Positions 19,811-52,384 are shown, numbered from the stretch's first letter. The stretch: DNA of 64,000 bases from Armatimonadota bacterium (GCA_050942735.1 JBMNNW010000007.1:13086-77085); one strand, 5' to 3'. Notes: generated by a model from the letters alone, not told the origin. Numbers and translations are program-made.

Positions 19811-21463
19811 GTGCATTTCAGGACCGGAATCGAAACGACGGTCGAGCAGCTTGAGCACTGGATGGAACTGCCATCCGAGGACGAGCACATCGAGTTCAAA
19901 GAGGCTAAGGGGAGTTTCGCCTTCGATGATGCGGCGAATTACTGCATTGCGCTGGCCAACGAGGGTGGAGGCAAACTGATACTCGGTGTCAGCGATTCCC
20001 CGCCACGTCACGTGGTTGGCAGTCGAGCCTTTCGCAACCCTCAGAAGACGCAGAAGGGCCTGCTGGACTCGATCCACCTCAGGATCTTCATTGAGGAGAT
20101 TGAGCATCCTGACGGACGAGTTGTTGTGCTGCACGTTCCGAGCCGGCCTATCGGAATGCCGCTCGCACGTAACGGCAGGTTCCTGATGCGGTCAGGCGAA
20201 TCACTGGTGGGGATGACTTCCGACCAGATCCGACGAATCCACGATGAAGGACGGCCTGACTTTTCAGCAACGATCTGTGAGCAAGCGGAGGGTGCGGAGC
20301 TTTCGGCAGCAGCAGTTCAGATCCTACGCGATGAATGGCGAAGGAAGTCCGGCAACGTTCGCATCGATGAACTCACGGATGAGCAGCTTCTGGCGGATCT
20401 TGGTGTTGTCCGACCTGATGGTGTTACGTACGCGGCGATTATTCTGTTGGGGTCGGAGGACGCTGTTCGCCGGCATCTTCCATGTGCCGAGATCATCTTC
20501 GAATACCGATCTGACGAATACACTATTCGCCATCAAGACCGAATCGAATTCCAGCGTGGATTTCTCCTGTGTCATAATGACATCTGGAGCGCCGTGAACC
20601 GGCGTAACGATACGGAACACTATCAGGACGGATTGTGGCTTCGGGACATTCCGGTCTTCAGCGAAAGCGTGATACGTGAGGCGGTCCTGAATGCCGTCAG
20701 TCATCGGGACTACCGGCTGCAGGGTCCGGTGTTCATCCGCCAGTTCCCGCGCAAGCTGGAAGTCCTCAGCCCCGGCGGGTTACCCGAGGGTGTGACGGTC
20801 GAGAACATAATGGACAGGCAGGTTGCGCGGAACCCGCTCCTGGCTACCGTGCTTGAGAGGTGCGGGCTGATTGAGCGATCGGGGCAGGGAGTGGACCTCA
20901 TGTTCGGCAACTGCCTTCGTGAGGGGAAGGCTCTTCCCGATTACTCGCGGACCGACGAACATCAGGTCTTTCTCACGCTACCCGGCGAAGTACAGGATGC
21001 GAACTTCGTGCGGTTTCTGGAGACTGTCGATCGTGATAGGCAGATCGGCTTTACAACAGAGGATCTGATCATACTCGATCACCTCAAACACAAGCGAACT
21101 GTGCCCCAACGTCTGAGCAATCGGTTGGCACGACTCGTTGAGGCTGGTGTTGTTGAACGACGCGGACGGAACCAGCATATTCTTTCGCAGGAGTACTATC
21201 GCTTTGTTGACGAAAGAGGCGCCTACACGCGCGTTGCGGGATTGGATCGGGAGAAGTGCAAATTGCCTCTTCTGCAGCACATAGAAGAGAATCAGGATGA
21301 CGGCAGTCGAATGAAGGATCTCATGGACGTGGTGAATCATCTGACACGAAGTCAGGTGAGGACGCTCCTTGATGATCTGCGTGAAGACGGGCGTATTCAC
21401 TGCGTCGGCGTCACCCGAAACGCTCGTTGGTACCCGGGGCCAGATCCAGATAGCAACACGTAG
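19811..21463 (+). CDS. Schlafen/AlbA_2 + HATPase_c_4 (RecG-C-like) + winged-HTH protein
   Basis: EDEHIEFKEA, ALANEGGG.LILGV, REAVLNAVSHRDY, SPGGLP, RNPLLA, IERSGQG; visibly lower GC than flanks. Confidence 0.88.
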   Translation: MHFRTGIETTVEQLEHWMELPSEDEHIEFKEAKGSFAFDDAANYCIALANEGGGKLILGVSDSPPRHVVGSRAFRNPQKTQKGLLDSIHLRIFIEEIEHPDGRVVVLHVPSRPIGMPLARNGRFLMRSGESLVGMTSDQIRRIHDEGRPDFSATICEQAEGAELSAAAVQILRDEWRRKSGNVRIDELTDEQLLADLGVVRPDGVTYAAIILLGSEDAVRRHLPCAEIIFEYRSDEYTIRHQDRIEFQRGFLLCHNDIWSAVNRRNDTEHYQDGLWLRDIPVFSESVIREAVLNAVSHRDYRLQGPVFIRQFPRKLEVLSPGGLPEGVTVENIMDRQVARNPLLATVLERCGLIERSGQGVDLMFGNCLREGKALPDYSRTDEHQVFLTLPGEVQDANFVRFLETVDRDRQIGFTTEDLIILDHLKHKRTVPQRLSNRLARLVEAGVVERRGRNQHILSQEYYRFVDERGAYTRVAGLDREKCKLPLLQHIEENQDDGSRMKDLMDVVNHLTRSQVRTLLDDLREDGRIHCVGVTRNARWYPGPDPDSNT

Positions 21464-21820
21464 CTATCGAGAAGTGGCGTATTGCGCGATGGTCTTCCCG
21501 TGCGCAATAGAAACGCAATAGAACCAATCAGCAACCAATGTCTCGCAATTGAACGACATCCTGTCCTTTGGACGTAGTGCCCACTAAGGCACCAATACAG
21601 CGAATACGCCTGTCGATGTCTCTCTACCTGGGGGATTGGCAAGCACCTAATCTCAGCCAAACAGAACGCAATGCACACGCAATCCAGATCCAATACACGC
21701 CTGGGCCCTGGATGATCCGCCGCGGGGGAGCTTTGCCGAACACGTCATCAAGACCGGCAAGCGGATCGTGTGAGAGTGCAGAAAGCAGTACCATCGACCG
21801 CGGGGCAGGAGGTGGCGTGG

Positions 21821-22288
21821 ATGCGCAGAAGCTCAGTCACCCGTCGCTCCCGTCTCGCCGGCGCCCTTGCGCTGGGGGGCATGCTGCTCGTCGTGGGCGG
21901 CTGCGAGGAGCCCGAGGATGCCGATGTCGAGTTCATCTACGAGATGGCCGACTACGACATGGCCGAGAACGCCGTCACCGGGCAGGTCCGCAGCCGCCTC
22001 GAGCGGCAGCAGATCGAACTGCGCGGCCTGTGGCTGGGGCTCCGCCCCGTGGAGGACGGCCCATCCACGCTCAACGCCGATGTGGATGTCTACGCCGAGG
22101 CCGATCAGGCGGAGGAGATCGCCCGCCTCGTCGCTGAGGTGAGCCTCAACGCGCTGCCGAGGCACGAGCTGGTGCAGGTACGCGTCTTCTGGTGGCGCGA
22201 CACATCCGGCGAGGACTATGCGCACAACGCAGGCACCTGGGTGTGGAACGCGGGGGGCGAACTAATCCGTCACATTCGACCCGAATAG
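21821..22288 (+). CDS. Hypothetical lipoprotein
   Basis: GGAGGT RBS; basic N-terminus, hydrophobic stretch and VGGC lipobox. Confidence 0.75.
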   Translation: MRRSSVTRRSRLAGALALGGMLLVVGGCEEPEDADVEFIYEMADYDMAENAVTGQVRSRLERQQIELRGLWLGLRPVEDGPSTLNADVDVYAEADQAEEIARLVAEVSLNALPRHELVQVRVFWWRDTSGEDYAHNAGTWVWNAGGELIRHIRPE

Positions 22289-39696: not shown

Positions 39697-39788
39697 CGTC
39701 GCCGCACGATGTGTTCTCTTCGCACCCGGGCTGCCGCCATCCGCGGCAGTCCTGTCCGTCTGTCGCGACACAGCGGGAGGTGGCCGGC

Positions 39789-42761
39789 GTGTTCACGCGG
39801 TCAGATCAAAGCAGGATGCGCATCCTCGTCGATCACTACCACGACTCAGGGTGGAGCGGTGTTCGGCGCGAGCTGAGCAGCGGCCCCGAGCGGATCACGA
39901 TCTGCCGCGAGCCGCTCAAGTGGAGCGTGTTGCGGCGCTACCACGTCGTCATCATTGACGCCACCGCTCCCGCGCGGGTGGGGCCGGCGGAGTTGAAGGC
40001 CGTCGAGCGCTTCGTCGCCGAGGGCGGGGGCCTGCTGGTCGCCGGCTCCGCGCCGCAGTTCGAACTGGTGACGGGCGATGGACCATCGAAGATGCCCGCC
40101 GCGCGCTTCGCGGAGCGCTTCGGCGCGCGCTTCGTGCCCGCTGAAGACTCCGGGGGCGAGCTGCAGATCGACCGCGAGTTCCGCGTGGGCTATCATGAGG
40201 ACGATGTCGCGGTGACGGAGGGAGTCGTCGAGGGCTTCGGACCGCACCCGCCCGGCGCGGAGACGTGGACACCGCTGCGGCTTCCCGATGGCGCGCGCCC
40301 GCTGCTCGTCCATCGGCAGACAGGCGAACCCCTCGCGGGCCTTACCGAGCACGGCAGCGGGCGCGTCTGCGTCTGCGCGGTCACGCTCGAGCGCTTCAAT
40401 GTCCTGGCGCACCTCCAGCCGCTGCTGCGCGCGCTCGCCCCGGACCCGGCCGAGCGGGGGGGCGACGACCTGCCCGTGGAGATCGGCCCGCCACCGACCG
40501 CACGCACGGTGCACGGCCTCAAGCTCATCTGCGACGAACCCGTCGTCGAGCGCGCCGACGAACTCGCGGGCCTCATCCGCCGCTTCGACGAGTTCATGGT
40601 CGGGGTCTTCGGCACGGACTGGGCGACGCCCTCGGTCATCCGCGTGTTGCAAACCTCACGCCGCCCGCGCCCCTGGGATGACGGCCTCTTCCTCGCCGCC
40701 ACCGGGCCACGCTGGGCACTGGCGTACAACGCCGCCCTCGCGATCGCCAACGCCGCCGTGTGGCATCGTCCATCCGGCCACCTGCTCGTGAGCCTCTTCC
40801 CCGAGGCCACGGTGGCGCGCCATCTGGCACTGCGCTTCCTCGATCACCTCGGGTTCGCCGACGAGGCCGACCGCCTCCGCGACCGCCTGGTGCGGGCGCT
40901 CGACGCGAGCGACCCGTCACGCACACGGAAAGACCTCTCGCGCATCTACGCCGCCACCGAGCAGTGGCATCCCGGGGGCGCATGGCTGCTCGCCGAGCTT
41001 GAGCGGCGCTCCGGGGACGACCTGCTCGGCCGCCTTTTTGAGGTTCTCCCGAAGAAACGCGAGGAGGACCGCCTGCTCGCCGCGTTCGCCTGGCCTGCCG
41101 ACCGGCTGGCATACTACCTCGGGCTGGCCGCGGGCGAGGACCTCAGCGAGTTTCTCGCTCAGATCGGCACGACGGTGCACCCTCTGCCCCTGGTCCGGCC
41201 CGACGACGACGGCTTCGACGCGGCGATGCGCGGCGTGCTCGTTGAGGCGCTGCTCGCCGATGCCCCCGCCGTCGAGGCGAGCCGTCGCATCGAGGCGCTG
41301 AGCGATCTGTCACGCCTCAAGCCCGAGGAGCGCGCCGAGCTTCCCGACCGCGCGCGGAGCATGGTCGAGGCGTTCGAGCGCTCGGTGGCGTCGGATGAGC
41401 GCGCGGCGGAGCCGCTGGAGGCGCTCGCGGCGGGCGATCAGCCCGAGGACGCCGCGTGGGCTGCGCTGCAGCTCGTGACGATGGGGCGGTCGCAGTGGGC
41501 CGATCGCCTCGCCGGGCTGTTGCCCGGTCGCGATCTGCGCTTCCGGCTGATGGGGGGGCACGCACTTCGCAGGCTCGGCCGCGAAGCGCCGGAGGGATCG
41601 CTTGAGGGGCTGACCGACGGCGGAACGCGTGTCGGTGAACTCGAGATCGCCGCCCGCGACATGGTGATCGTCCACGCGAAGGTCGAGGGCTACGAGATCG
41701 CCAACGTACTCGCCGAGAGCGGGCTGAGCGGCTTCCCGCACGGGCACTGGGCCACCCGCTTTTACGTCTACTGGGTGCACACCTCGCCGCAGTGGCGGCG
41801 CAGCGGCCTGTCACGGCGGGCGTTCGCGGCGGCGATGCAGCACGAGGAGGCGCTGCGCTGCTCGTGCTTCGCGCTCAACACCGGCACTCGCAACAACGCC
41901 CACGCGCTCTACCGCGACTTCGGCTACGTGGACATGGACCGGCGGGAGCGAGCCGTCAAACTGCTGTGCCTCGGGACCCCGTGCGTCTCCCCCGACGGCG
42001 TCGTCATCCGGCCGATCGGCAAGGATGACCGCGAAACGGTCCGGCGCTATCTGCTCGACTACCACGACGACGCGTTCACGCTCTCCCCGCTGCCGGTGCC
42101 GCACCTCGGTGAGGGGACCTTCGCGGCGCTGGCCGAGCGCGATGGCGAGCTTGTCGGCGTCGCGCTGGCAAGCCACGAGGAGGGCGATCGTGCCACGCTG
42201 CTCGACGTGGCGGTCCGTGAGGGCGAGGAGGCGCGCGCCGAGATCGGCGCCGCCCTCCTCGCGCGGGTGCATACGCTGCTGGCTGGGGACGGTGCGAGGC
42301 GCGTGACCGCGGACGTGTGCTCGGACGCGGGCCTGCTGACCGACGTGCTGTGCCGCTGTGGGTACTCGCGCGAGTCTACCGGCGACGTGAACATGTTCGG
42401 CATCCGCGACCTCGCGCAACTCCTCGGGGAGATACGCCCGCTCTTCGAGCGCCGCCTGCGCAAGACGCCCTTCGAGGACTGGCGAGGGCGCGTGATCCTG
42501 CTTGGAGAGCGCCTCCGATCGGGGCTGGAGTTCGAGGATGGCTCGGCGCGCGTACTCGACACACTCGACTCGCGGCCGACGGACATCGCGCTGCGCACCA
42601 CCGACGAGCGCATCACGCGGATCGTGACCGGGCGGGAGACGCCGCTCGAGGGCTACCTTCAGCGGGAAACGACCGTGGAGCCGCAGGTCAGTCCGCCGGT
42701 CATGAGGCTGCTGGAGACGCTCTTTCCCCGGATGCCCTTCGTCCTGCGCTGGGGATGGTGA
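39789..42761 (+). CDS. Large multidomain GNAT acetyltransferase
   Basis: GNAT motif A VHTSPQWRRSGLS and AHALYRDFGY, a second degenerate GNAT, and an N-terminal GATase-like segment (FVAEGGGLLV); GGAGG RBS before GTG. Confidence 0.78.
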   Translation: MFTRSDQSRMRILVDHYHDSGWSGVRRELSSGPERITICREPLKWSVLRRYHVVIIDATAPARVGPAELKAVERFVAEGGGLLVAGSAPQFELVTGDGPSKMPAARFAERFGARFVPAEDSGGELQIDREFRVGYHEDDVAVTEGVVEGFGPHPPGAETWTPLRLPDGARPLLVHRQTGEPLAGLTEHGSGRVCVCAVTLERFNVLAHLQPLLRALAPDPAERGGDDLPVEIGPPPTARTVHGLKLICDEPVVERADELAGLIRRFDEFMVGVFGTDWATPSVIRVLQTSRRPRPWDDGLFLAATGPRWALAYNAALAIANAAVWHRPSGHLLVSLFPEATVARHLALRFLDHLGFADEADRLRDRLVRALDASDPSRTRKDLSRIYAATEQWHPGGAWLLAELERRSGDDLLGRLFEVLPKKREEDRLLAAFAWPADRLAYYLGLAAGEDLSEFLAQIGTTVHPLPLVRPDDDGFDAAMRGVLVEALLADAPAVEASRRIEALSDLSRLKPEERAELPDRARSMVEAFERSVASDERAAEPLEALAAGDQPEDAAWAALQLVTMGRSQWADRLAGLLPGRDLRFRLMGGHALRRLGREAPEGSLEGLTDGGTRVGELEIAARDMVIVHAKVEGYEIANVLAESGLSGFPHGHWATRFYVYWVHTSPQWRRSGLSRRAFAAAMQHEEALRCSCFALNTGTRNNAHALYRDFGYVDMDRRERAVKLLCLGTPCVSPDGVVIRPIGKDDRETVRRYLLDYHDDAFTLSPLPVPHLGEGTFAALAERDGELVGVALASHEEGDRATLLDVAVREGEEARAEIGAALLARVHTLLAGDGARRVTADVCSDAGLLTDVLCRCGYSRESTGDVNMFGIRDLAQLLGEIRPLFERRLRKTPFEDWRGRVILLGERLRSGLEFEDGSARVLDTLDSRPTDIALRTTDERITRIVTGRETPLEGYLQRETTVEPQVSPPVMRLLETLFPRMPFVLRWGW

Positions 42762-42854
42762 TCGAGGGCCGCGCCCGCGGGGGCCTGCGACGAGGCGCCG
42801 GGGCGTTGTGGAGAGGGCGGATCTCGCTCCGGCCTGCGCCCTCGTCGCCTCTCG

Positions 42855-43571
42855 TTACCCCCCGAGCCACCGAAGGATCGGCTCCGCCACCAGCGGTGTC
42901 CACCAGTCGTCGTAGAGGAACTGCACGCGCCCGATCAGCAGCGAGACGCGCGCCATCACCGTGTTGCCGAAGCTCGCGCCGAAGGCCACCATCAGGAAGA
43001 GTATCCCAACCTTCGAGGCGACCCCGAACGCTCCCGACTGCGCGCGGGAGAAGTAGAAGTACGCCAGCGTGCAGAGCAACCCGACGATCAGCAGGAAGTT
43101 GCTGATCGCGGTCCAAAGCGGCACCTCGACCCCCGGCCAGATCGGCAGCATCGTCGCATAAAGCTGAGGCAGCAGGTCGGCCTGCACCGACGCGGGGATC
43201 GTCAGGCCGGAGTAAAGGCCCATCACGAACGCGATCGGCCAGCGTGAGAGCCAGTCGTAGCGCGGGAAGAAGCGGCTGAACATCATCAGCCCCAGCACAC
43301 CGGGGATGATCACGAGGTAGCTCGGCGCGGCCATGTCCACCCGCTCCGGGCGGAAGAGCGGGTCGATCAGCAGCGGGATCACCGCCTCGTGCCAGGTGAT
43401 CACCACGCCGTAGCCCGCGGAGACCCCTACGAAGAGGTGCTCCGCGAACTTGTAGATGGGGTTGTCCTCGTAGAGGAAGCTGAAGATCGCCAGCGTCAGG
43501 AACGCGGCCAGCCAGACGCCGATGATCTCCGTCGAGATTCCCCAGATTTCAGGTGCTGCCGCCTCAGGCAT
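42855..43571 (-). CDS. Conserved hypothetical membrane protein (about 6 TM), GlmL-like locus
   Basis: FSFLYEDNP.YKFAEHLFVG, MVAFGASFGNTVMAR. Confidence 0.85.
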   Translation of the reverse strand: MPEAAAPEIWGISTEIIGVWLAAFLTLAIFSFLYEDNPIYKFAEHLFVGVSAGYGVVITWHEAVIPLLIDPLFRPERVDMAAPSYLVIIPGVLGLMMFSRFFPRYDWLSRWPIAFVMGLYSGLTIPASVQADLLPQLYATMLPIWPGVEVPLWTAISNFLLIVGLLCTLAYFYFSRAQSGAFGVASKVGILFLMVAFGASFGNTVMARVSLLIGRVQFLYDDWWTPLVAEPILRWLGG

Positions 43572-43641
43572 AGGTCAGCTACCAGTCTCCTGCAACTCGT
43601 CAACGATCCACATCGCGACAGCCCCCTGCCGTGCCCCGGCC

Positions 43642-44370
43642 CTACCCCTCGGCCGGCTTGCGAATCTCCAGCCACCAGCCCACGTCCGGCTCGGTGATCA
43701 GCCGGCAATGCTCGATCCCGGCCTCCCGCGCCAGGTCCACCATCCCCTCCGCGGGCCCCTCCCAGCCCTCGGGGATGCGGCCCTCCTCCCAGCGCCTCAG
43801 GCGGTCCTCAACGAGTCGCGCGCGAATCTCAGGATCCAGCAGTGTCCCCCAACCGCCGTGGCCGACGTACGCCACGCCGCCGGGCTTGAGAATGCGGTAG
43901 ACCTCACGCATGAACTGCACCTTATCGGGGACGAAGGGAATGACCGCGCGGCTGAAGACGAAGTCCGCGAGGCCCTCACGCAGCGGCATGTCCTGCGCGT
44001 CGCCCTCGATGGGAATCACCCGACTGGTCAGCCCCGCTTCGTCAACAAGCACACCGCACAGCCGGATCGCCCACGGGTCGAGGTCGAGGTTGTACACGGT
44101 CATCTGCGTCTGCGCGGCAAGCGCAATCGAGAACGCGCCCGCGTTTCCGCCGATCTCCACCGCGACGCCCTCGTCGAGGTCGTACTCCATCACCATCTGC
44201 CGGGCCAGCGGCTCGTACATCGGCGCGCGGGATCCCGTCATCGTCTGGAAGAAAGGAACCTTCTCTTTGAGCTGCTCGACGTAGCCGTCGGCACTCGCCA
44301 CCGGGGCGATCACCGCGACCATCCCCGCGGCCGCCAGCAGCAGCGCAATCCGTTCGAATCGAAGCCTCAT
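43642..44370 (-). CDS. Class I SAM-dependent methyltransferase with N-terminal signal peptide
   Basis: VEIGGNAG, LDLD, GDAQDMPL, EVYRILKPGG; signal-like N-terminus ending ASA|DG. Confidence 0.87.
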   Translation of the reverse strand: MRLRFERIALLLAAAGMVAVIAPVASADGYVEQLKEKVPFFQTMTGSRAPMYEPLARQMVMEYDLDEGVAVEIGGNAGAFSIALAAQTQMTVYNLDLDPWAIRLCGVLVDEAGLTSRVIPIEGDAQDMPLREGLADFVFSRAVIPFVPDKVQFMREVYRILKPGGVAYVGHGGWGTLLDPEIRARLVEDRLRRWEEGRIPEGWEGPAEGMVDLAREAGIEHCRLITEPDVGWWLEIRKPAEG

Positions 44371-44420
44371 GATCTATCTCTCCACTGTCCGACGGACGAT
44401 ACCACGCGCTCCGACACGGC

Positions 44421-45257
44421 CTACCGCCGGCGGTGCCGCCCGGACGCGAAGTATGCGATGTTCCCCACGATGACCAGCACGATGATCAGCAGATGCGCGA
44501 TCGACTGCGCCGACATCCCCAGCATCCCGGGCGCCTCCGATGGCTCAAGGTCAATCAGCCGCTCGTACTCCGCGGCCCCCTTCAGCCCGTTGATCAGCCC
44601 GATGAGCTGCCCTGACTGCAGGTAGGGGTAAAGGTCGGTCGCCATCACGGCGGTGATCCCTGCGACGAGGTCCTGGTTGTAGCGTTCGCGGGCGTAGGCG
44701 ATCCACGCGAAGGGGATGTTCCCCGCGGCGAAGTCCACCACCAGCGCCACGTCCGCGTAGGTCTTCACCCCGTCCATCACCTGCAGTTGGCTCGTCTTCC
44801 GGCCGTCCGCGGTGGTCGGGTAGACCTGCTCGATGCTCTCGCCCATCCCGAGGATCACCTGCGAGCCACCCGGCTTGAAGCCAAGATGCACGTAATCCAC
44901 GCCGTCCACGGCCCCAAGCTCGTCTCCGACCGTCGCGAGGACCTCGCGCCCAAGCGCCGTCCCCTGCGCGTTGAGCGAGACGCTCAGAAGGCGAAGGTCG
45001 CGCGTCAGAATGTGACGTACCACCGCGTACGCCTGCGGATGCAGCTCCGGCATGCTCGAGGGCGAGTAGTCGAATGACACCATCACGACCTCGCCGGGTT
45101 CCAGCGCCTCGATGTAGTCGTACACCGCGACCGTCGGAGGCGCGGGCTTGCCCTGCGGGAGCGCGTAGCCCGTGACGATCGGGATCACCACCGCCAGCGC
45201 GATCCCGACGAAGATCCAGCGACGATCAAGATCCAGCAGACGCTCCCACACATTCAC
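44421..45257 (-). CDS. Conserved hypothetical protein, N- and C-terminal TM with soluble domain
   Basis: GTGA overlap with the upstream gene; SFDYSPSSMPEL, YPYLQSGQL, GAAEYE, AQSIAH. Confidence 0.85.
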   Translation of the reverse strand: MNVWERLLDLDRRWIFVGIALAVVIPIVTGYALPQGKPAPPTVAVYDYIEALEPGEVVMVSFDYSPSSMPELHPQAYAVVRHILTRDLRLLSVSLNAQGTALGREVLATVGDELGAVDGVDYVHLGFKPGGSQVILGMGESIEQVYPTTADGRKTSQLQVMDGVKTYADVALVVDFAAGNIPFAWIAYARERYNQDLVAGITAVMATDLYPYLQSGQLIGLINGLKGAAEYERLIDLEPSEAPGMLGMSAQSIAHLLIIVLVIVGNIAYFASGRHRRR

Positions 45258-45925
45258 GCGCCACCACCTCCGCCGCCGCCTCCAAGGTGCGAGCGCTCGA
45301 TGCCGACGATGATGCGAAGGGCGGTCGCGATCGCGCCCAGCGCCACGCCGAAGATGATCCCGCGCTTGCCCGCGACCGTCGGGAAGCTCATGATCCACTC
45401 CGACACGTCGGGCATCGTTGCGTGCAGCCACAGCCCGGGGCCGGACTCGCCGAAGACCACGATCAGCGTCTCCGGGACCCGTCCGAGCATCACCACGATC
45501 GCCGCCACCAGCAGCAGCGTCGCCTCGGTCGAGCGGGCACGGAAGGTCCGGAAGGCCGCCGAGGCGATGAAGAACGCCAGCAGAGAGAACATCGTCGCAT
45601 CCAGCGGCACCTGCACATGGCGGAAGATCCAGTCAAAGCCGGTCCCGCGTTCGTGCCCGAACCCGATTCCGACGACGACCATGAGCCCGAAGGAAACGAT
45701 CGCAACCATCGAGTAAGGCCAGTCGCGGCGCCGCCGGCGAATCTTCTCCACATGCGTGCGCAGCAGGCTCTCAATCCCGAGCACCAGCGCGAATGCGGCG
45801 ACGATCCGCCCCCAGTTGAGCAGCTCGGCAAAGGCCGTCTGCCCCAGCTCGTGAGGGACGAAGAACTGCACCGCCATGAACACGCCGGCGAGAAAAGTTA
45901 TAACCAGCGGAATCTGAAGACGCAT
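45254..45925 (-). CDS. Conserved hypothetical membrane protein (about 6 TM)
   Basis: ATMFSLLAFFIASAAFRTFR, KRGIIFG, LRIIVGIER. Confidence 0.85.
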   Translation of the reverse strand: MRLQIPLVITFLAGVFMAVQFFVPHELGQTAFAELLNWGRIVAAFALVLGIESLLRTHVEKIRRRRRDWPYSMVAIVSFGLMVVVGIGFGHERGTGFDWIFRHVQVPLDATMFSLLAFFIASAAFRTFRARSTEATLLLVAAIVVMLGRVPETLIVVFGESGPGLWLHATMPDVSEWIMSFPTVAGKRGIIFGVALGAIATALRIIVGIERSHLGGGGGGGGA

Positions 45926-45979
45926 GTGTTGGCTTTCAGAGACGAGTTGCAGCCGACCGACCTGCGACCGGCGATGAAC

Positions 45980-47218
45980 TTACACGCCGAACCACTGCAC
46001 GAACGCCCGCGCCGCGTCGGCCAGCCAGCCGGTTGCGACAGAGGCGTAGGTTGCGGCCGCCACGCCGGCCACCAGCGCGACGGCGATGATGAACTTCGCG
46101 ATGTCCTGCCCGCGAAGCTGCGCGACCAGCAGCGGCTGGCGCGACAGATACGCGCTCGCGGCGTAAAGCTCCTCACCCATCAGCGTGTAATCACACGCGG
46201 TGATGAAGAACGGAAGCTGCGTGTCGGCATCGGTGCCGGCGATCTGAATCGCGCCGGTCTCGTTGCCCGTCTCCGCGAGGATCAGCGCCTCGGCGAAGAA
46301 GTACCCCATGTAAAAGCACGCCGCGGGCTTCTCACGCAGCATGATCCCGTCCACCGCGGCGACGTAGCCGAACTGACTCTCGGTCACGAAGAAGATATTG
46401 TCCGGGCGGTACGCGTCGGGCTTGCCCGCCTCGGTGTATGCCTGCCGCACGATCTCCCGCTCGGTCGTCATCACCAGCGGATCGTTGCACGGCACGAGTA
46501 TCTCCGTCTCATACGCCGCCGAGCGGCGCGACAGGTGGCCGAGGATCAGCATCGACGCGATCGTCGAGATGCTGCCGATCCCCGACAGCCCCGAGACGTA
46601 GACGATCGGCTTGCCCATCTCCGTGGCGCGACCGATCGCGTCGTTGACGGCCTCGAGCCCCGCGATCGGCCGGATGTACACGTCCTCCGCCCGCCCACGC
46701 ACCCGGTAGATCGTCACGATCACGATCACGCAGATCAGCACCGACAGCGCGAGGATGTTCGTGTACTGCGGATTGAACCACGTGCCCTCCGGCCGCACCG
46801 GCCCGACGATCGCCGCCTCGATCACCGGGGCCACGGTCGCCGAGAACCCCGGCGCGCGGGCCAGCGGCGCATCCGGCGGAGGGAACTGGTACTCGATCGT
46901 CACGCCCAACTCCCACCGCGGCCACGGCCACGGCTTGAGACCGCCGACCGGCGTCGATGTGGCGCCGAGCGGCACCACCGGGCCTCTCTGCCAGCCGCCA
47001 CCGACCTCGCGAAGCAGGATGCGCTGGCCGACCGGCTCCAGCCCCCGCAACTCGAGGGGCCGCTCCGGCGGCTCCCAGGTGAGCGTCATCTGAACGCCGC
47101 GCGGCTCCTCCTGGTCATCGACCGCCTGCACGTTCGACGGAACGACCGTCTGCGCCACGCACACGGACGCCGCCATCAGAACGCAGAGGCCGATTGTGCA
47201 CAGCCGGAGAGCGTTCAT
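45980..47218 (-). CDS. Signal peptide + FnIII-like domain + TM + DUF6754-like domain protein
   Basis: VPSNVQAVD..LTWEPP; IRPIAGLEAV.DAIGRATEMG; QLPFF..CDYTLMGEELYAASAYLS; ATGA overlap. Family name from recall. Confidence 0.82.
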   Translation of the reverse strand: MNALRLCTIGLCVLMAASVCVAQTVVPSNVQAVDDQEEPRGVQMTLTWEPPERPLELRGLEPVGQRILLREVGGGWQRGPVVPLGATSTPVGGLKPWPWPRWELGVTIEYQFPPPDAPLARAPGFSATVAPVIEAAIVGPVRPEGTWFNPQYTNILALSVLICVIVIVTIYRVRGRAEDVYIRPIAGLEAVNDAIGRATEMGKPIVYVSGLSGIGSISTIASMLILGHLSRRSAAYETEILVPCNDPLVMTTEREIVRQAYTEAGKPDAYRPDNIFFVTESQFGYVAAVDGIMLREKPAACFYMGYFFAEALILAETGNETGAIQIAGTDADTQLPFFITACDYTLMGEELYAASAYLSRQPLLVAQLRGQDIAKFIIAVALVAGVAAATYASVATGWLADAARAFVQWFGV

Positions 47219-48357
47219 TCCTCGATGATCTCCATGTTCGCCCGCGGCACTACGATGACCTCGCCGGTCCTGTCCAGCCGCACCCGCGCGACGCGCACCC
47301 GCGCCTCCGTCTCGATCTGCGTGGGCTCCTCGGGCAGCTCCACGATCACCGCAAGCTCCCCGAAGGTCGGCGGGCGGATCAGCCGCACCGGGCTGCCCAC
47401 CGCAAGCCCCCGAGTCTGCATCTCGTCGCGCGCCTCCCACGTCGCCCCCGGCTCAGGCACCACGACCTCCGGCCGGATCACGCCCGCGCGGATCTGCGTC
47501 GCGCCGTTCACCGACGCGCGCCGTCCATCCCGCTCGGCCAGCAGCTCGAAGGTGCGCGCGCGCATCGGGGTGTCGCCGAATCCCTCGGTGAGCACCAGGC
47601 TCAGCCCGAGGTCCTCCTGCCCGGTGATCGCCACCCCCAGCGGCTCGCCTACGAACTCGTCGAGATCGCGGTCGTCAATCGCGCCGGTGACCACCGCCGC
47701 GACCCCGGCCTCCCGTGCGGCCATCAGCGCGTCCAGCGTTACACGCCCGCCACCCACGAGGACGCAGTCGCGGCAGTCATCAGAGATCAGCTCCGCGGTG
47801 CATGCCTGCCCGGGCGCGTCGCACAGCACCCTCAGCACGCCGTGCGCCTCCCCGCCCACGCCGAGAATCCCCTGCGCAAGCGCGCCGCGAGTCTCGACCA
47901 CGACCGCTTCGCGCCCGTGCACCTCGACGACGACCCCGTCGATGTACGCATCGATCTGCACCTGGATCGGCTCGCCGCGGATCAGCACCTGCCCCGTCAC
48001 GCCGCTGACCGTCTCGATCGTCCCCGAGATCGGCGCGCGGGCGATCGCGTGGAAGAGCCCCCAGAAGCTCTTGCTCTCGGCGATCACCTGCCGCAGCTCG
48101 ACCTCATCGCCCTCCTCCACCAGCAGATAGTCCGGCACATCGTCGGGCGTCATCGAAAGCTCATGCGCCACGTTCACGTTGACGACGTTGCCGGGAAGCT
48201 GCGTGGAGCCGATGAGCTGCTCGGCGCGCACCTCCTCGCCCTCGCGCACGTGTATCTCGCCCGGCAACGGCAGCCGCCGCAGCCGCCGGATCAGCGCGCG
48301 ATCGGTGATCCGCAGGCCCGGAGTATACCCGTGCGTCGTCGCGTTCACCGCGCTCAT
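47215..48357 (-). CDS. Hypothetical soluble protein with barrel-sandwich-hybrid-like repeats and C-terminal KOW-like motif
   Basis: VREGEEV and VEEGDEV..APISGTI; LTEGFG; GATQIRAGVIRPE; GSPVRLIRPPTFG. Confidence 0.82.
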   Translation of the reverse strand: MSAVNATTHGYTPGLRITDRALIRRLRRLPLPGEIHVREGEEVRAEQLIGSTQLPGNVVNVNVAHELSMTPDDVPDYLLVEEGDEVELRQVIAESKSFWGLFHAIARAPISGTIETVSGVTGQVLIRGEPIQVQIDAYIDGVVVEVHGREAVVVETRGALAQGILGVGGEAHGVLRVLCDAPGQACTAELISDDCRDCVLVGGGRVTLDALMAAREAGVAAVVTGAIDDRDLDEFVGEPLGVAITGQEDLGLSLVLTEGFGDTPMRARTFELLAERDGRRASVNGATQIRAGVIRPEVVVPEPGATWEARDEMQTRGLAVGSPVRLIRPPTFGELAVIVELPEEPTQIETEARVRVARVRLDRTGEVIVVPRANMEIIEE

Positions 48358-50204
48358 GAGCCGCCCTCCCCGGAGGGCTGAGCCGGCGCCGGCGGCAGGT
48401 CGGGGTAGATGTCGAGTTCTCGCTCCCAGCGGCGAATCGCCTCCGCCCGCTGAGCATCGTCCTCCGGAAGCTGCAGCGGCCGTCCCCGCGCGTCGATGAT
48501 CAGGCCGGCCACTCCGCCCTCAAGCTCCGCCTTGACGGGCCGCCCTCGCCCCTCCCCGGCGTCAAACGAGCGCGTCGGCTCGATCGTCACCCGCACTTTC
48601 TCACCCTCGCCCAGCGTCGCGAGCCTAATGTCACCGAACGCCACGTCAATCTCCTCATCCCCCGAGGCGCGGTGCACGATCACCTTCACGCACGCAGCGC
48701 CCTCGCGCCCCCTGCCGACCGGCGCGATGCACGGGCCCAGCGGGATCAGGCAGTCCCGGTAGAACACCTCCGTCGCCGCCTGCTCGTTGACCGTGGCCAG
48801 CACGCCGAGCTGAGGCATCATGAAGATGCTGTCCACCGCCAGCCGCGTCACGCCCGCGGGCTCGAAGGCGTCGATCATCATCATCGCCGACTGGCCGCGG
48901 CGCGGCGCGTGGGAGAGCACTCCGCCCGAGCCGACGATCAGGTCCAGCGCCATCATGTCAACCAGCGTCTCCGCGCCCCCCGCGCCGAACGCGTCGGCGA
49001 TGTCTCGCTGGCGCTGCACGCCCTTGAGTTCGCTCGCCAGCATCTTGTGCTGCGCGAAGGCCAGTCGCAGCGCCTCCCGCGCTACGGCCTGCTCGACCAT
49101 CAGCCCGAGAAGCTGCTGGGGAATCGTCGTCGGACGGATCATCTTGTTGCGGATGTCATTGCCCAGCCGCCGCGGGTCGGGGTGCGCCGCCACCCAGCGG
49201 AGGATGTTGCCCAGCCCGGCCTCGGCCAGCACGTTCGAGATCGAGTAACTCATCCCGAGGTTCGCCGAGACCGTCCGGTTGAAGGTCTGCTCGAACACTG
49301 AGAAGACGTCCGTCGTCGCGCCACCGATGTCCACGCCCACGACGTTGATGCCATCGCGCGCGGCGACCGCCTCGATCAGCGCGCCCACCGCCGCCGGTGT
49401 CGGCATGATGTCCGCGTCCGCCCAGCCCATCAGCTTCGGGTAGCCCGGCGCCTGCGCCATCACATGCTCGAGGAAAAGCTCCTGAATCTCCGCGCGCGCG
49501 GGCCCGAGGTTCTCCTCCTCCATCGTCGGGCGCAGGTTCTCCACCACGGTCAACTGCGTCGCGCGCTCAAGCGCCTCCCGCACCGGCTCGCGCGCACCCT
49601 CGTTGCCCGCGAAGATCACCGGCAGCTCGTAGCCCACGCCCAGCCGCGCCTGCGGGTTGGCCGCCGCGACCAGCTCGGCCATCTCCACCACCCGCCGCAC
49701 CTCACCGCCGTCGGTTCCGCCGGAGATCAGGATCATGTCCGGACGCAGCTCGCGCATCCGCTCGATCCGCTCGTAGTCGCGGCGGCCGTCGTCGAGCGCC
49801 ACCACGTCCATCACGATCGCGCCGGCGCCCAGCGCCGCCCGCTGCGCGCTCTCGGCGGTCATCGAGCGCACCAGCCCCACGACCATCACCTGCAGACCCC
49901 CGCCCGCCGAGCTGGTGGAGACGTAAGCGTCCACGCCCTCGTCTCCGCTGTGTGGCCGGATGATCTCACCGCCGCGGATCAGCCTCCGCCCCGACAGCTC
50001 CTCGACCTCGCGCACGGCGTTGAGCACGCCGACGGTCACGTCCTCGTAGGGAGCTTCCACGGTCGTCGGCGCTTCACCGCGCACCCTCAGCCGGTACTCC
50101 CCATCAACAAGCTCGATGAGGATGGCCTTGGTGGTGGTGGAGCCGCAGTCGGTCGCGAGGACCGAGCGAAGCTGCGTGGAGTGCGACTGCGCGTACTCTG
50201 ACAC
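48354..50204 (-). CDS. glmL: GlmL/MutL-like (glutamate mutase L family) ASKHA-fold ATPase
   Basis: Phosphate-1 DCGSTTTK, SSAGGGL, SGGTDGG, MPTP, phosphate-2 DIGGATTDVFS, RTVSANLGM. Confidence 0.85.
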   Translation of the reverse strand: MSEYAQSHSTQLRSVLATDCGSTTTKAILIELVDGEYRLRVRGEAPTTVEAPYEDVTVGVLNAVREVEELSGRRLIRGGEIIRPHSGDEGVDAYVSTSSAGGGLQVMVVGLVRSMTAESAQRAALGAGAIVMDVVALDDGRRDYERIERMRELRPDMILISGGTDGGEVRRVVEMAELVAAANPQARLGVGYELPVIFAGNEGAREPVREALERATQLTVVENLRPTMEEENLGPARAEIQELFLEHVMAQAPGYPKLMGWADADIMPTPAAVGALIEAVAARDGINVVGVDIGGATTDVFSVFEQTFNRTVSANLGMSYSISNVLAEAGLGNILRWVAAHPDPRRLGNDIRNKMIRPTTIPQQLLGLMVEQAVAREALRLAFAQHKMLASELKGVQRQRDIADAFGAGGAETLVDMMALDLIVGSGGVLSHAPRRGQSAMMMIDAFEPAGVTRLAVDSIFMMPQLGVLATVNEQAATEVFYRDCLIPLGPCIAPVGRGREGAACVKVIVHRASGDEEIDVAFGDIRLATLGEGEKVRVTIEPTRSFDAGEGRGRPVKAELEGGVAGLIIDARGRPLQLPEDDAQRAEAIRRWERELDIYPDLPPAPAQPSGEGGS

Positions 50205-50276
50205 GTCGGAACGTGGTCCTTCCGGTCGATGCTGTAAGCTTCGGGGGGTGCTTCGACTCCCCGGGTCGGGATACCT

Positions 50277-50501
50277 TCATGCGCCCGGCACCGGGCCGCC
50301 GCTGTCATGCCGGGGCCCTGCGGCAGATGCAGAAGACCCTCCCGCAACGCCTGCCGGGCGGACTGAAGCCGTCCCCGTCGAGCACCTGATGTCGCAGACC
50401 CGCGGCGCCGAGCATCTGCCGCGCGGGTGCCTGAGCCGATGCGTCCACGAATGCCGGTGCGTGTTGTAGACGTCGGCGAAGTCAGGCCCGTAGATCGTCA
50501 T
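50277..50501 (-). pseudogene. Remnant of a class I SAM methyltransferase
   Basis: MTIYGPDFADVYN...RVCDIRCSTG resembles a decayed RVLDLGCGTG; frame ends after 74 aa; GAGG RBS. Confidence 0.5.
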
Positions 50502-50675
50502 GGTGCGGACCTCACGCAACGGCACAGGTCGGCGGGGAGGCCGACCTCTCCGGACGGCATGTGGAGTCCGCGGAGCGGAGAGAACTCCAGGACCTGCGAG
50601 CGAAGCGAGCAGCGTCAACGGCAACGACCTCGCGGCCGTTGCCGTTGCCGGTCACTCGCAGCCCGTCGCTCGTCG

Positions 50676-52241
50676 CTACAACACGTGCGGATCGGGGCCC
50701 TCAGCCGCCTCGCCGTGCTCGCGGGCGCGCTCGCGCAGCAGCAGCGCGTTCACCGCGTTGAGATAGGCCTGCGCGCTCGCCTCGATCACGTCGAGGCTCG
50801 CGTCCTGACCGACGGCCTCCTCATCGCCCATGCGCACGCGGATCGTCGCCTCACCCAGGGCGTCCTGTCCCCGCGTGATGCTCCGCACGCTGTAGTCGGC
50901 CATCTCAAGGTCGGGCATCCCCACGGCGTTGCGGATCGCATCGGTCACCGCGTCCACCGGCCCGTTCCCGTGGCCCACCTGCGTGATCGTGTCCCCGTTG
51001 CGGCGCAGCACCACCAGGCCCATCGGCTCGAGCCGGGTCCCCGTCGCCACCTGCACGCGCTCGAGGTGCCAGACCTCCGGCATCCCCTCCGTCGAGGCCT
51101 GCCGCATGATCACGTGCAGGTCCTCGTCGTACACGCGCTTCTTCCGGTCGGCGACGGCGAGGAATCGCTCGTAGACCTCCTCCATGTCCTCCTGCGAGAC
51201 CGCGTAGCCGAGCTTCTCCAGCCGACTGCGCAGGCCGTGCTTGCCCGAGCGAGGCCCGAGTGTGAAGACCGACTCGGTCAACCCGACGTCCTCGGGCCGC
51301 ATGATCTCGTAGGTCTGCCGATCCTGGATCATCCCGTGCTGGTGGATCCCCGCCTCGTGCGCGAACGCGTTCGCGCCGACGATCGCCTTGTTCGGCTGCA
51401 CAACGAAGCCGGTGAGCGTGGAGACCATCCGCGAGGTGTTCATGATCTCCTGCGTGTTGATGTTCGTGTCCGCGTCGAACTCATCGCCGCGGGTGCGCAG
51501 CGCCATCACGATCTCTTCGAGCGAGGCGTTGCCCGCGCGCTCGCCGATACCGTTGACGGTGCACTCGACCTGCCCCGCACCGGCCCGAACGGCGGCCAGC
51601 GAGTTCGCCACCGACATCCCGAGGTCGTCGTGGCAGTGCACCGAGATCACCGCGTCGTGGATGTTCGGCACATGCTCGAAGAGGTAGCCGATCGTCTCAT
51701 ACATCTGCCACGGCGTCGCGTAGCCGACCGTGTCGGGGATGTTGACGGTCTTCGCCCCGGCCTCGATGACGGCCTCGACAACGTCGCGGAGGTACTCCAG
51801 CCGAGTGCGCAACGCATCCTCGGCGGAGAACTCGACATCGTCGCAGAGGCTGCAGGCGAGCGTCACCCCGTCCACGGCCATCTGCAGCACCTCCGCCTCG
51901 GTCTTGCCGAAACGCTTCTCAACGTGGACCTTCGAGGTGCCGATGAAGGTGTGGATGCGCGGCTTCTCGCCGTGCCGAACCGCCTCCCAGCAGCGCTCGA
52001 TGTCCTTTGGCAGCGCCCTCGCCAGGCCGGCCACCGACGGCCCCCTGACCTCCTGCGCGATGGCCTTCACCGACTCGAAGTCCTCCGGCGATGAGATCGG
52101 AAAGCCCGCCTCGATGACGTCAACGTTCAGGCGCGCGAGCTGGCGGGCGAGCTGAATCTTCGCGCTGTGGTCCATGGAGGCGCCCGGCGCCTGCTCACCG
52201 TCGCGCAACGTCGTGTCGAAGATCGTGATTGATCGTGGCAT
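50676..52241 (-). CDS. leuA: 2-isopropylmalate synthase
   Basis: FDTTLRDGEQ, EAGFP, PDTVG, HCHDD, GERAGN, HEAGIHQ, regulatory domain GNGPVDA; AGGAGG RBS. Confidence 0.97.
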   Translation of the reverse strand: MPRSITIFDTTLRDGEQAPGASMDHSAKIQLARQLARLNVDVIEAGFPISSPEDFESVKAIAQEVRGPSVAGLARALPKDIERCWEAVRHGEKPRIHTFIGTSKVHVEKRFGKTEAEVLQMAVDGVTLACSLCDDVEFSAEDALRTRLEYLRDVVEAVIEAGAKTVNIPDTVGYATPWQMYETIGYLFEHVPNIHDAVISVHCHDDLGMSVANSLAAVRAGAGQVECTVNGIGERAGNASLEEIVMALRTRGDEFDADTNINTQEIMNTSRMVSTLTGFVVQPNKAIVGANAFAHEAGIHQHGMIQDRQTYEIMRPEDVGLTESVFTLGPRSGKHGLRSRLEKLGYAVSQEDMEEVYERFLAVADRKKRVYDEDLHVIMRQASTEGMPEVWHLERVQVATGTRLEPMGLVVLRRNGDTITQVGHGNGPVDAVTDAIRNAVGMPDLEMADYSVRSITRGQDALGEATIRVRMGDEEAVGQDASLDVIEASAQAYLNAVNALLLRERAREHGEAAEGPDPHVL

Positions 52242-52300
52242 GTGAGACTGCCTCCTGTGTGCGGAACGTGAGATACGCGTACTCGTGCCGGGATGCGCCT

Positions 52301-52384
52301 TCAGCGCCGAGGGTGGCCGGCACGGGGCCACCCGCCCGCTGCGTCAGAGGACGCAAGCCTTAGGTCAAGCTCAGGATCGTCCAT
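52301..52384 (-). CDS. Candidate 27-aa leader peptide in the leuA 5' region
   Basis: GGGAGGT RBS; MDDPELDLRLASSDAAGGWPRAGHPRR with Leu codons CTT, CTA, CTT. Confidence 0.3.
   Translation of the reverse strand: MDDPELDLRLASSDAAGGWPRAGHPRR

Follow-up and report, generated by a model that had tools for sequence, protein, structure and literature searches.

A candidate seven-protein system that joins a MutL-family ATPase to a DUF6754 inner-membrane module in Armatimonadota and other phyla

A 64,000-nucleotide stretch of DNA from an Armatimonadota bacterium (GCA_050942735.1 JBMNNW010000007.1:13086-77085), referred to here as the window, carries at 42855-50204 a row of seven minus-strand open reading frames (ORFs) in one orientation, which we number G1 to G7 from upstream to downstream. 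G1 is a MutL-family ATPase, G2 its soluble partner, G3 a membrane protein with a DUF6754 domain, G4, G5 and G7 further membrane proteins and G6 a methyltransferase. Without G6, and together with a small protein, G0, that is encoded outside the window, they make up a set of seven families (G0-G5 and G7) whose members keep 40-65% identity over more than a dozen phyla; all seven are present in the source genome. We propose that the set is a widespread and undescribed system, independent of B12 mutases, in which ATP-driven work by G1 and G2 on the DUF6754 module would move something, or pass on a movement, across the inner membrane. The chance that this proposal is right as a whole appears to us a little short of even, and the mechanism in it is inferred from the anatomy of the proteins and from their distribution.

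The identity of G1 is clear from its match to the Pfam family MutL (PF13941), which extends over residues 15-484 and model positions 1-449 of 450 (E 1.4e-123, 413.5 bits, with a gathering cut-off of 27 bits). Asp19, Gly21, Thr23-25, Lys26, Asp292, Gly294-295, Thr297-298, Asp299 and Gly425-428 are invariant in 37 of 37 orthologues, so that both phosphate loops and the adenosine loop of an ASKHA ATPase are kept throughout; we take the corresponding motifs to be DxGxT (phosphate-1), DxGGxT (phosphate-2) and a GGG-type adenosine loop. The catalytic site of the ATPase is accordingly intact in G1. It is followed by a conserved C-terminal extension of ~130 residues that is not found in the short, 464-residue form of MutL. 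A metal cluster in this extension was considered and dropped, as its cysteines are not strictly kept (Cys485 in 37, Cys492 in 30 and Cys505 in 33 of the 37 sequences). Across phyla, G1 proteins are 57-64% identical. A Pfam scan of G1 returned only MutL and a weak match to Hydantoinase_A (24.6 bits with a cut-off of 22.9, no single stretch passing alone), with no match to the DdrA or EutA families, and a profile search of the PDB with the sequences of G1, G2 and G5 gave nothing credible.

A search of the MutL family with G1, using representatives of clusters at 50% identity, found 3170 of them at E <=0.001, with 783 at E <=1e-30. The best 150 of these were analysed and are mostly long (~560-640 residues) or fused forms. 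Thirty-eight are at least 900 residues in length and, of these, 34 contain a G2 part that covers at least 60% of G2. In one fusion (P0362) the G1 part is 58% and the G2 part 40% identical to the window proteins, with the full length of G2 aligned at E 4e-89; in another (P0369) the values are 53% and 37%, with G2 aligned at E 1e-69. Since natural fusions make up 34 of the 150 best representatives, G1 and G2 are shown to be one cytoplasmic unit, which in many organisms is a single polypeptide. The Hydantoinase_A match recurs in the fusion proteins, around the second phosphate loop. A diverged fusion of 981 residues, which is 36% identical to G1 and 23% to G2, is encoded in a Cloacimonadota genome (locus L117, G003:C18, 9395-12340, plus strand) that also keeps an ordinary G1/G2 pair. 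This diverged gene adjoins genes for FKBP, Peptidase_M3, TPR, SLT and FlhB proteins and may belong to a paralogous system. Long frames around G1 in two further genomes (1008 residues in G053 and 937 in G054) were rejected as fusions, since the two genes are read in different frames. Two representatives with N-terminal extensions (P0363 and P0367) carry unrelated domains (TSP3 and Peptidase_M1) and gave no functional lead.

The AlphaFold2 model of G2 (mean predicted local distance difference test score, pLDDT, 87.6) shows a barrel-sandwich hybrid, a beta-rich region, a small five-stranded alpha/beta domain and a C-terminal KOW-like domain. The alpha/beta domain contains the invariant loops QGIxGxGGE, GVAITG, TEGFG and GATQIRAGVxRPE. 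G2 itself scores just below the cut-off for RnfC_N (24.9 against 25.6 bits); among 30 members of its family RnfC_N is matched by 24, Biotin_lipoyl, weakly, by 23 and NQRA_N by 13. When the model was compared with the PDB using Foldseek only local KOW/NusG matches were seen, and NqrA and RnfC are absent among the matches listed. A modifiable biotin or lipoyl lysine is not conserved: in 12 orthologues the column of Lys96 (in the motif AESK), where we place the hairpin from our own reading of the alignment, contains lysine, arginine, alanine or serine.

G3 matches DUF6754 (PF20539) over residues 144-392 (E 8.4e-112, 372.9 bits, with a cut-off of 27 bits). From the N-terminus it consists of a signal-like helix, an exported fibronectin type III (FnIII) domain (~28-141), a transmembrane helix (~150-173), the DUF6754 domain (144-392) and a C-terminal transmembrane helix. 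The FnIII domain was matched to titin Fn3 in the PDB profile search (E 4.5e-19) and is also seen in the structural model (mean pLDDT 75.9), in which DUF6754 forms an alpha/beta core. Fifty columns of DUF6754, mostly polar, are invariant across 27 sequences from many phyla. The FnIII matches swamped the DUF6754 part in the Foldseek search of the PDB with the G3 model, where they were the only ones returned, and the ESM Atlas gave no usable match for the DUF6754 part. The exported part of the protein is variable, with 760 longer proteins carrying PQQ-type beta-propellers, FnIII domains or unannotated regions before DUF6754; the Armatimonadota of classes other than the window's mostly have short DUF6754 frames of 250-300 residues. 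Two or three DUF6754 genes accompany a single MutL gene in several genomes (G019, G033, G047, G060, G073, G086, G108, G117 and G135, genus g22). The same is seen in G025, G039 and G065, where the copies are in tandem, as at C34:793-1503 and 1705-2424 in G039.

None of G4, G5 and G7 is matched by a Pfam family, and NCBIfam has no match for G2, G3, G4, G5 or G7. Hydropathy suggests ~6 helices in G4, two terminal helices in G5 with a domain of ~220 residues between them, and four clear helices, perhaps up to six, in G7. The distribution of charges suggests that the G5 domain is periplasmic and that the DUF6754 domain is cytoplasmic. The neighbours of G5 in the ESM Atlas are all clusters of 'hypothetical protein'; one of the nearest is labelled as commonest in Candidatus Bathyarchaeota, which may reflect an archaeal module or contaminated bins. 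At the C-terminus of G4 (45254-45290, minus strand) there is a run of eight glycines (GGGGGGGGA), where the family consensus is only LGG.

By searching with back-translated DUF6754 motifs we found DUF6754 in at least 596 species genomes. The 80 best DUF6754 loci were fetched and searched by tblastn with the seven window proteins, which gave G3 in 80, G4 in 77, G5 in 75, G7 in 73, G2 in 26, G1 in 22 and G6 in three. G3, G4, G5 and G7 occur together in 73 of the loci, 62 of which have them in collinear order on the same strand within 5 kb. These four genes are thus shown to be an inner-membrane module that keeps a conserved gene order. The loci come from more than 12 phyla, among them Armatimonadota, Poribacteria, Planctomycetota (including anammox genera), Zixibacteria, Gemmatimonadota and Cloacimonadota, with Ignavibacteria, Nitrospirota, Methylomirabilis, Latescibacterota, WOR-3, Myxococcales and others also represented. 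Every core protein has relatives in other phyla, in 73-80 of the 80 loci and with identities of 32-89%, so that the core ORFs are real genes and not chance reading frames. Full operons recur in Armatimonadota, Zixibacteria, Gemmatimonadota, Methylomirabilis and anammox and other Planctomycetota, and G2 has the arrangement of the window in 20 of the 67 loci with room upstream. The genes on either side of the four-gene module in Poribacteria and Ignavibacteria are housekeeping genes with no relation to it. All five genomes examined in which the module stands alone (from Poribacteria, Ignavibacteria, Cloacimonadota and Nitrospirota) have a long MutL elsewhere, of 600-633 residues and with 57-64% identity to G1 over the full length, and G2 adjoins it in three of the five.

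The association of G1 and G2 with the membrane module is seen most clearly at the level of whole genomes. In a sample of 151 Armatimonadota, DUF6754 is present in 131, MutL in 133 and G2 in 129; MutL and DUF6754 occur together in 131, MutL alone in two and DUF6754 alone in none, with neither found in the remaining 18. G2 was found in none of these 18, and it is also missing from four fragmented assemblies (G048, G066, G091 and G149). The 18 double-negative genomes are distributed over four families (14 of 14 genomes in f9, 2 of 8 in f12, 1 of 1 in f16 and 1 of 6 in f18), suggesting that the whole set was lost on several occasions. Among 101 Nitrospirota, MutL and DUF6754 are both present in the same 14 genomes and both missing from the other 87. 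The genes for G1, G2 and DUF6754 are megabases apart in three closed genomes (G144, G115 and G141); in G144 they lie at 1.63 Mb, 3.63 Mb and 2.89 Mb, respectively. Their co-occurrence is therefore not the by-product of one mobile block, and G1, G2 and DUF6754 are shown to be present or absent together even when dispersed. Around 18 dispersed G1 genes there are no conserved neighbours beyond G2 and within-family synteny.

A further component, G0, came to light when the ORFs of the 80 loci were clustered. It is a family of small proteins, of ~100-120 residues and without a Pfam family, which lies directly upstream of G1 in 12 of the loci, 1.4 kb upstream of it in one and directly upstream of G3 in one. 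In five of five closed Armatimonadota genomes G0 is directly upstream of DUF6754 with G1 far away, and in five of five genomes examined that do not have the system it was not found. That G0 adjoins G1 in some genomes and DUF6754 in others shows that it bridges the two modules; alternation between both neighbourhoods is a classic signature of a shared system. In the source genome G0 is a 96-residue ORF (E 5.7e-38 to the G0 profile) on another contig (G000:C82:4488-4778, minus strand, locus L095), and it was missed when the window was first annotated. It sits alone on this 6.5-kb contig among unrelated genes, its neighbours encoding a Peptidase_C39-like/PEP-CTERM protein and a GFO/IDH/MocA oxidoreductase. 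The ORF at 50277-50624 (minus strand) of the window, in the place that G0 takes in other genomes, is not homologous to it, and a small ORF upstream of the diverged Cloacimonadota fusion was likewise rejected as G0. An initial annotation, made from the window sequence, had proposed that the ATPase serves a membrane machine. Conservation of the cluster is borne out by the 73 of 80 loci in more than 12 phyla, and a functional tie between the ATPase and the membrane proteins by the genome-level co-occurrence in two phyla together with the bridging G0.

MutL proteins are best known in connection with B12 mutases, and the initial annotation had noted that no mutase accompanies the cluster. This agrees with what we find. 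There is no B12-binding domain on the window's contig, the PF02310 matches of the genome being confined to three others (C91, C40 and C28), and no mutase was found in the genome, which is 92.8% complete. MM_CoA_mutase is missing from it (the control was found in 8 of 14 genomes), and neither Met_asp_mut_E nor Lys-AminoMut_A gave a match, both searches lacking a positive control and the ornithine aminomutase (OraE) families not having been searched. Similarly, Met_asp_mut_E was found in none of the 151 Armatimonadota, again without a positive control, compared with MutL in 133. G1 also falls below the cut-offs of all three NCBIfam models of the GlmL type: it scores 221.3 bits against 475 for the GlmL equivalog (NF040745), 161.4 against 204.05 for the subfamily model glmL_fam (TIGR01319) and 204 against 600 for Or-4 (NF040744). 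As far as could be tested, the system therefore appears to be independent of B12 mutases. The suggestion in the initial annotation that the ATPase had been recruited from a mutase helper finds no support here: the long form lies below the GlmL cut-offs, and long or fused forms dominate the best 150 family representatives. The only short form in the phylum sample is a 464-residue MutL (PF13941, E 3.6e-171) in genome G087 (locus L096, G087:C620, 806-5585). The other genes of its row, all in one orientation, are GalT-like, URO-D-like and octopine-dehydrogenase-like, with no B12 mutase among them, which makes this a second and different mutase-less context for MutL.

When compared with known systems, the closest relatives of G1 are the GlmL/MutL and Or-4 proteins, which belong to PF13941 and have the ASKHA core with all three loops. 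They differ in length (~460 residues for the short form) and in that G1 scores far below their cut-offs, is paired or fused with a barrel-sandwich/KOW protein, co-occurs with DUF6754 proteins and has no adjoining mutase. The reactivases DdrA/DdrB and EutA also consist of an ASKHA ATPase with a smaller partner, DdrA being ~600 residues long. G1 shows no Pfam match to their families, and its candidate target is a membrane module rather than a soluble B12 enzyme. Hydantoinases, oxoprolinases and acetone carboxylases are linked to G1 by the weak Hydantoinase_A match near the second phosphate loop; however, there is no Hydantoinase_B partner here and the best family of G1 is MutL. G2 resembles RnfC and NqrA in its N-terminal barrel-sandwich hybrid domain, and the Rnf and Na+-NQR complexes likewise have polytopic membrane subunits, but the scores do not rise above the cut-offs, no families for the binding of Fe-S clusters, flavin or NADH are present, and no Nqr or Rnf subunit was matched by G4, G5 or G7. 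With biotinyl and lipoyl carriers G2 has only the generic barrel-sandwich domain in common, the carrier lysine not being kept. In general layout, a cytoplasmic ATPase with bitopic or polytopic membrane proteins that have periplasmic domains, the system is reminiscent of FtsEX, MacB and MreB with MreC/MreD. This is an analogy: no relation in sequence or fold to FtsEX, MacB or MreB was detected, and G1 is of the MutL branch of ASKHA proteins, not an ABC ATPase or MreB. PADLOC-DB contains no families for G1-G5 or G7, and only G6 matches one of its models, for a generic methylase. The near-universal, single-copy presence of the set in whole phyla points to a housekeeping role and not to defence or niche catabolism. 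As the initial annotation supposed, the system appears to be without a published description: full-text searches, with subscription journals and supplements outside their scope, found no paper on the system, on DUF6754 or on PF13941, PF20539 or TIGR01319, and for the GlmL family they brought up mismatch-repair MutL papers instead. Its composition matches no known kind of system, and as far as can be told it is undescribed.

In the mechanism that we propose, G1-G2 would hydrolyse ATP, as predicted from its loops, and do conformational work on the DUF6754 domain, the one large part of the membrane module on the cytoplasmic side, possibly by way of G0. This work would either carry a substrate or transmit a movement across the inner membrane, through G4 and G7 towards the G5 domain, with the lineage-specific exported additions to G3 (FnIII here, beta-propellers elsewhere) facing the same side as that domain. 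A bolder form of the proposal seems to us rather unlikely: that this is a new class of ASKHA-driven inner-membrane machine, in which G1-G2 is the motor and DUF6754, G4, G5 and G7 a translocon or mechanotransducer, with a housekeeping function and with the small group of mutase-linked GlmL proteins as a side-branch. If it were true, Armatimonadota, Poribacteria, many Planctomycetota, Zixibacteria, Ignavibacteria, Cloacimonadota and others would have the machine as a housekeeping component, none of the ABC, P-type, rotary, AAA+ or secretion ATPases would be related to its energising module, and the main job of the MutL family would be at the membrane.

Several observations weigh against a membrane machine driven by G1-G2. 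In most genomes the genes are unlinked: only 18 of the 67 loci with sufficient space have G1 upstream of G3 at a distance of up to 3.5 kb, and G2 adjoins G1 in only 4 of the 18 dispersed loci. Dispersal of this kind would fit a shared pathway and a single complex equally well. Two genomes (G007 and G088) have G1 and G2 with no DUF6754 detected. Related genomes are not independent, so that the co-occurrence tables overstate their own significance and carry no p-value. The characterised MutL/GlmL protein is described, in a figure legend of PMC4682846, as a chaperone for the reactivation of glutamate mutase, that is, of a soluble enzyme, and not as a transport motor. On the membrane side, no transporter or other family was matched by G4, G5 or G7, and the transmembrane helices and the topology of G3 and G5 were read from hydropathy, by a crude scan, and from the positive-inside rule. 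The most conserved segment of DUF6754 (307-347) is modelled as disordered (pLDDT <50), so that its role cannot be read from the model. The idea of a pseudo-symmetric pair of pairs within the module was dropped, as profile-profile comparison gave a probability of 2.3% for G3 with G5 and 0.7% for G4 with G7. A complex prediction for G2 with residues 145-412 of G3, which scored 0.00 in two runs without controls, counts neither for nor against binding.

Two other explanations accept that the proteins belong together, and we consider each of them improbable to a similar degree. G1-G2 could be a reactivase or chaperone, which would open a membrane-bound enzyme or cofactor complex with ATP for the exchange or repair of a cofactor, with no transport, in the manner ascribed to GlmL, DdrA and EutA with B12 enzymes. 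The alpha/beta core of DUF6754, with its ~50 invariant and mostly polar columns, would be in keeping with an active site, the strict co-occurrence would fit a reactivase equally well as a motor, and G1 belongs to the family for which the chaperone function has been described (in the same figure legend of PMC4682846). However, G3, G4, G5 and G7 showed no sign of a cofactor-binding family or motif, DUF6754 has a single invariant cysteine (Cys342), and G1 is below the GlmL and Or-4 cut-offs with no DdrA or EutA match in Pfam. The second explanation is a pathway without a complex, in which G1-G2 would be a soluble, ATP-dependent enzyme of the hydantoinase or oxoprolinase type, acting on a small molecule by phosphorylation or ring opening, and the membrane proteins would import or export this compound, the two never touching. 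This is consistent with the dispersal of the genes in most genomes, with the weak Hydantoinase_A match of G1 and of the fusion proteins, and with the glycine-rich invariant loops of G2 (QGIxGxGGE, TEGFG and GATQIRAG), which could bind a ligand. On the other hand, the position of G0 next to either G1 or DUF6754 and the translational coupling of G2 and G3 are both more typical of subunits, and no further conserved pathway gene is found near the 18 dispersed G1 genes or near the membrane module.

That the two modules are functionally unrelated, their adjacency being due to chance or particular to some lineages, is consistent with the many genomes in which they are not adjacent, but this idea is close to refuted: presence and absence agree in 149 of 151 Armatimonadota and in all 101 Nitrospirota, G0 bridges both modules and full operons recur across several phyla. 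It is even harder to see G1 as an ordinary GlmL-type accessory of a B12 mutase encoded elsewhere in the genome, which we think extremely improbable. Membership of the Pfam family speaks for it, and a mutase gene could be missing from an assembly that is 92.8% complete. Against this stand the scores of G1 below all three GlmL-type cut-offs, the absence of matches to Met_asp_mut_E, MM_CoA_mutase and Lys-AminoMut_A in the genome, the phylum-wide contrast between Met_asp_mut_E and MutL within the limit on controls given above, and the short, 464-residue form of MutL, which has neither the 130-residue extension nor a fusion to G2.

The layout of the locus is given in Table 1. All seven minus-strand ORFs of the initial annotation were found at the coordinates that it gave, and its three 4-nucleotide overlaps were read in the sequence. 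Of its domain calls, the ASKHA loops of G1, the barrel-sandwich/KOW assignment of G2, the FnIII, transmembrane and DUF6754 parts of G3, the two helices of G5 and the methyltransferase all stood, and the description of two proteins with six transmembrane helices proved only approximate. G3 and G4 are separated by a spacer of 54 nucleotides.

Table 1. Genes of the row at 42855-50204 in the window and the overlaps between them.
Feature	Position	Strand	Description
G1	48354-50204	-	616-residue MutL-family (PF13941) ASKHA ATPase, long form
G2	47215-48357	-	380-residue soluble barrel-sandwich/KOW protein, partner of G1
G3	45980-47218	-	412-residue DUF6754 membrane protein, from ATG at 47218
G4	45254-45925	-	223-residue polytopic membrane protein; no family in Pfam or NCBIfam
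G5	44421-45257	-	278 residues from GTG at 45257; terminal transmembrane helices; no family in Pfam or NCBIfam
G6	43642-44370	-	242-residue class I S-adenosylmethionine (SAM)-dependent methyltransferase; lineage-specific insert
G7	42855-43571	-	238-residue polytopic membrane protein; no family in Pfam or NCBIfam
G1/G2 overlap	48354-48357	-	ATGA stop/start overlap, read in the sequence
G2/G3 overlap	47215-47218	-	ATGA stop/start overlap, read in the sequence
G4/G5 overlap	45254-45257	-	GTGA start/stop overlap, read in the sequence

The methyltransferase G6 (Methyltransf_11, E 1.2e-16) had been counted as part of the system. It is present in only three of the 80 loci (L008, L009 and L011), which are the closest relatives of the window, and is a local passenger inserted between G5 and G7, outside the core. 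Residues 8-26 of G6 form an N-terminal hydrophobic helix, which would be odd for a SAM-dependent enzyme if it were a signal peptide.

The gene row is flanked by a convergent gene with GNAT domains (39711-42761, plus strand) and by a co-oriented leuA-type gene (50676-52331, minus strand). The convergent ORF encodes 1016 residues, with two GNAT acetyltransferase regions near the C-terminus and ~650 residues of N-terminal sequence without assignment. A scan of 42500-50800 for promoters and terminators gave no sites, though it is uninformative at the G+C content of the window (68%) and with the promoter rules of the phylum unknown, and there were no Rfam matches in the window. The relatives of the window proteins carry Armatimonadota labels, and the source genome is an assembly of 5.1 Mb in 209 contigs. 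At 20001-22000 the G+C content falls to 0.574, from 0.65-0.72 elsewhere, around an ORF of 550 residues (19811-21463, plus strand); this may be foreign DNA. DNA nearly identical to 42500-50700 is present in two bioreactor metagenome runs (sampled-word share 0.96-0.98), one of which is perhaps the source; the contigs of the other (X2) show no differences from this interval in the pieces listed. A run labelled as RNA-Seq (X3), available as contigs only, was judged to be probably DNA.

Five of the seven families (G0, G2, G4, G5 and G7) have no model in Pfam or NCBIfam, one is a domain of unknown function and one is named after a mutase helper, a name that is probably misleading for most members of the family. 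Whatever the mechanism, annotation gains a defined system of seven genes, with G1-G2 as one unit and the methyltransferase excluded. Genes that are almost universal and single-copy within whole phyla usually encode core physiology. Most of the carriers belong to uncultured or little-studied lineages of importance in wastewater reactors, sponges, sediments and the anammox process, and this would account for the lack of any lead from a model organism. If G1-G2 does drive the membrane module, this would be a new energising principle for membrane machines, and it would give a function to thousands of proteins now annotated as 'hypothetical' or 'GlmL-like'.

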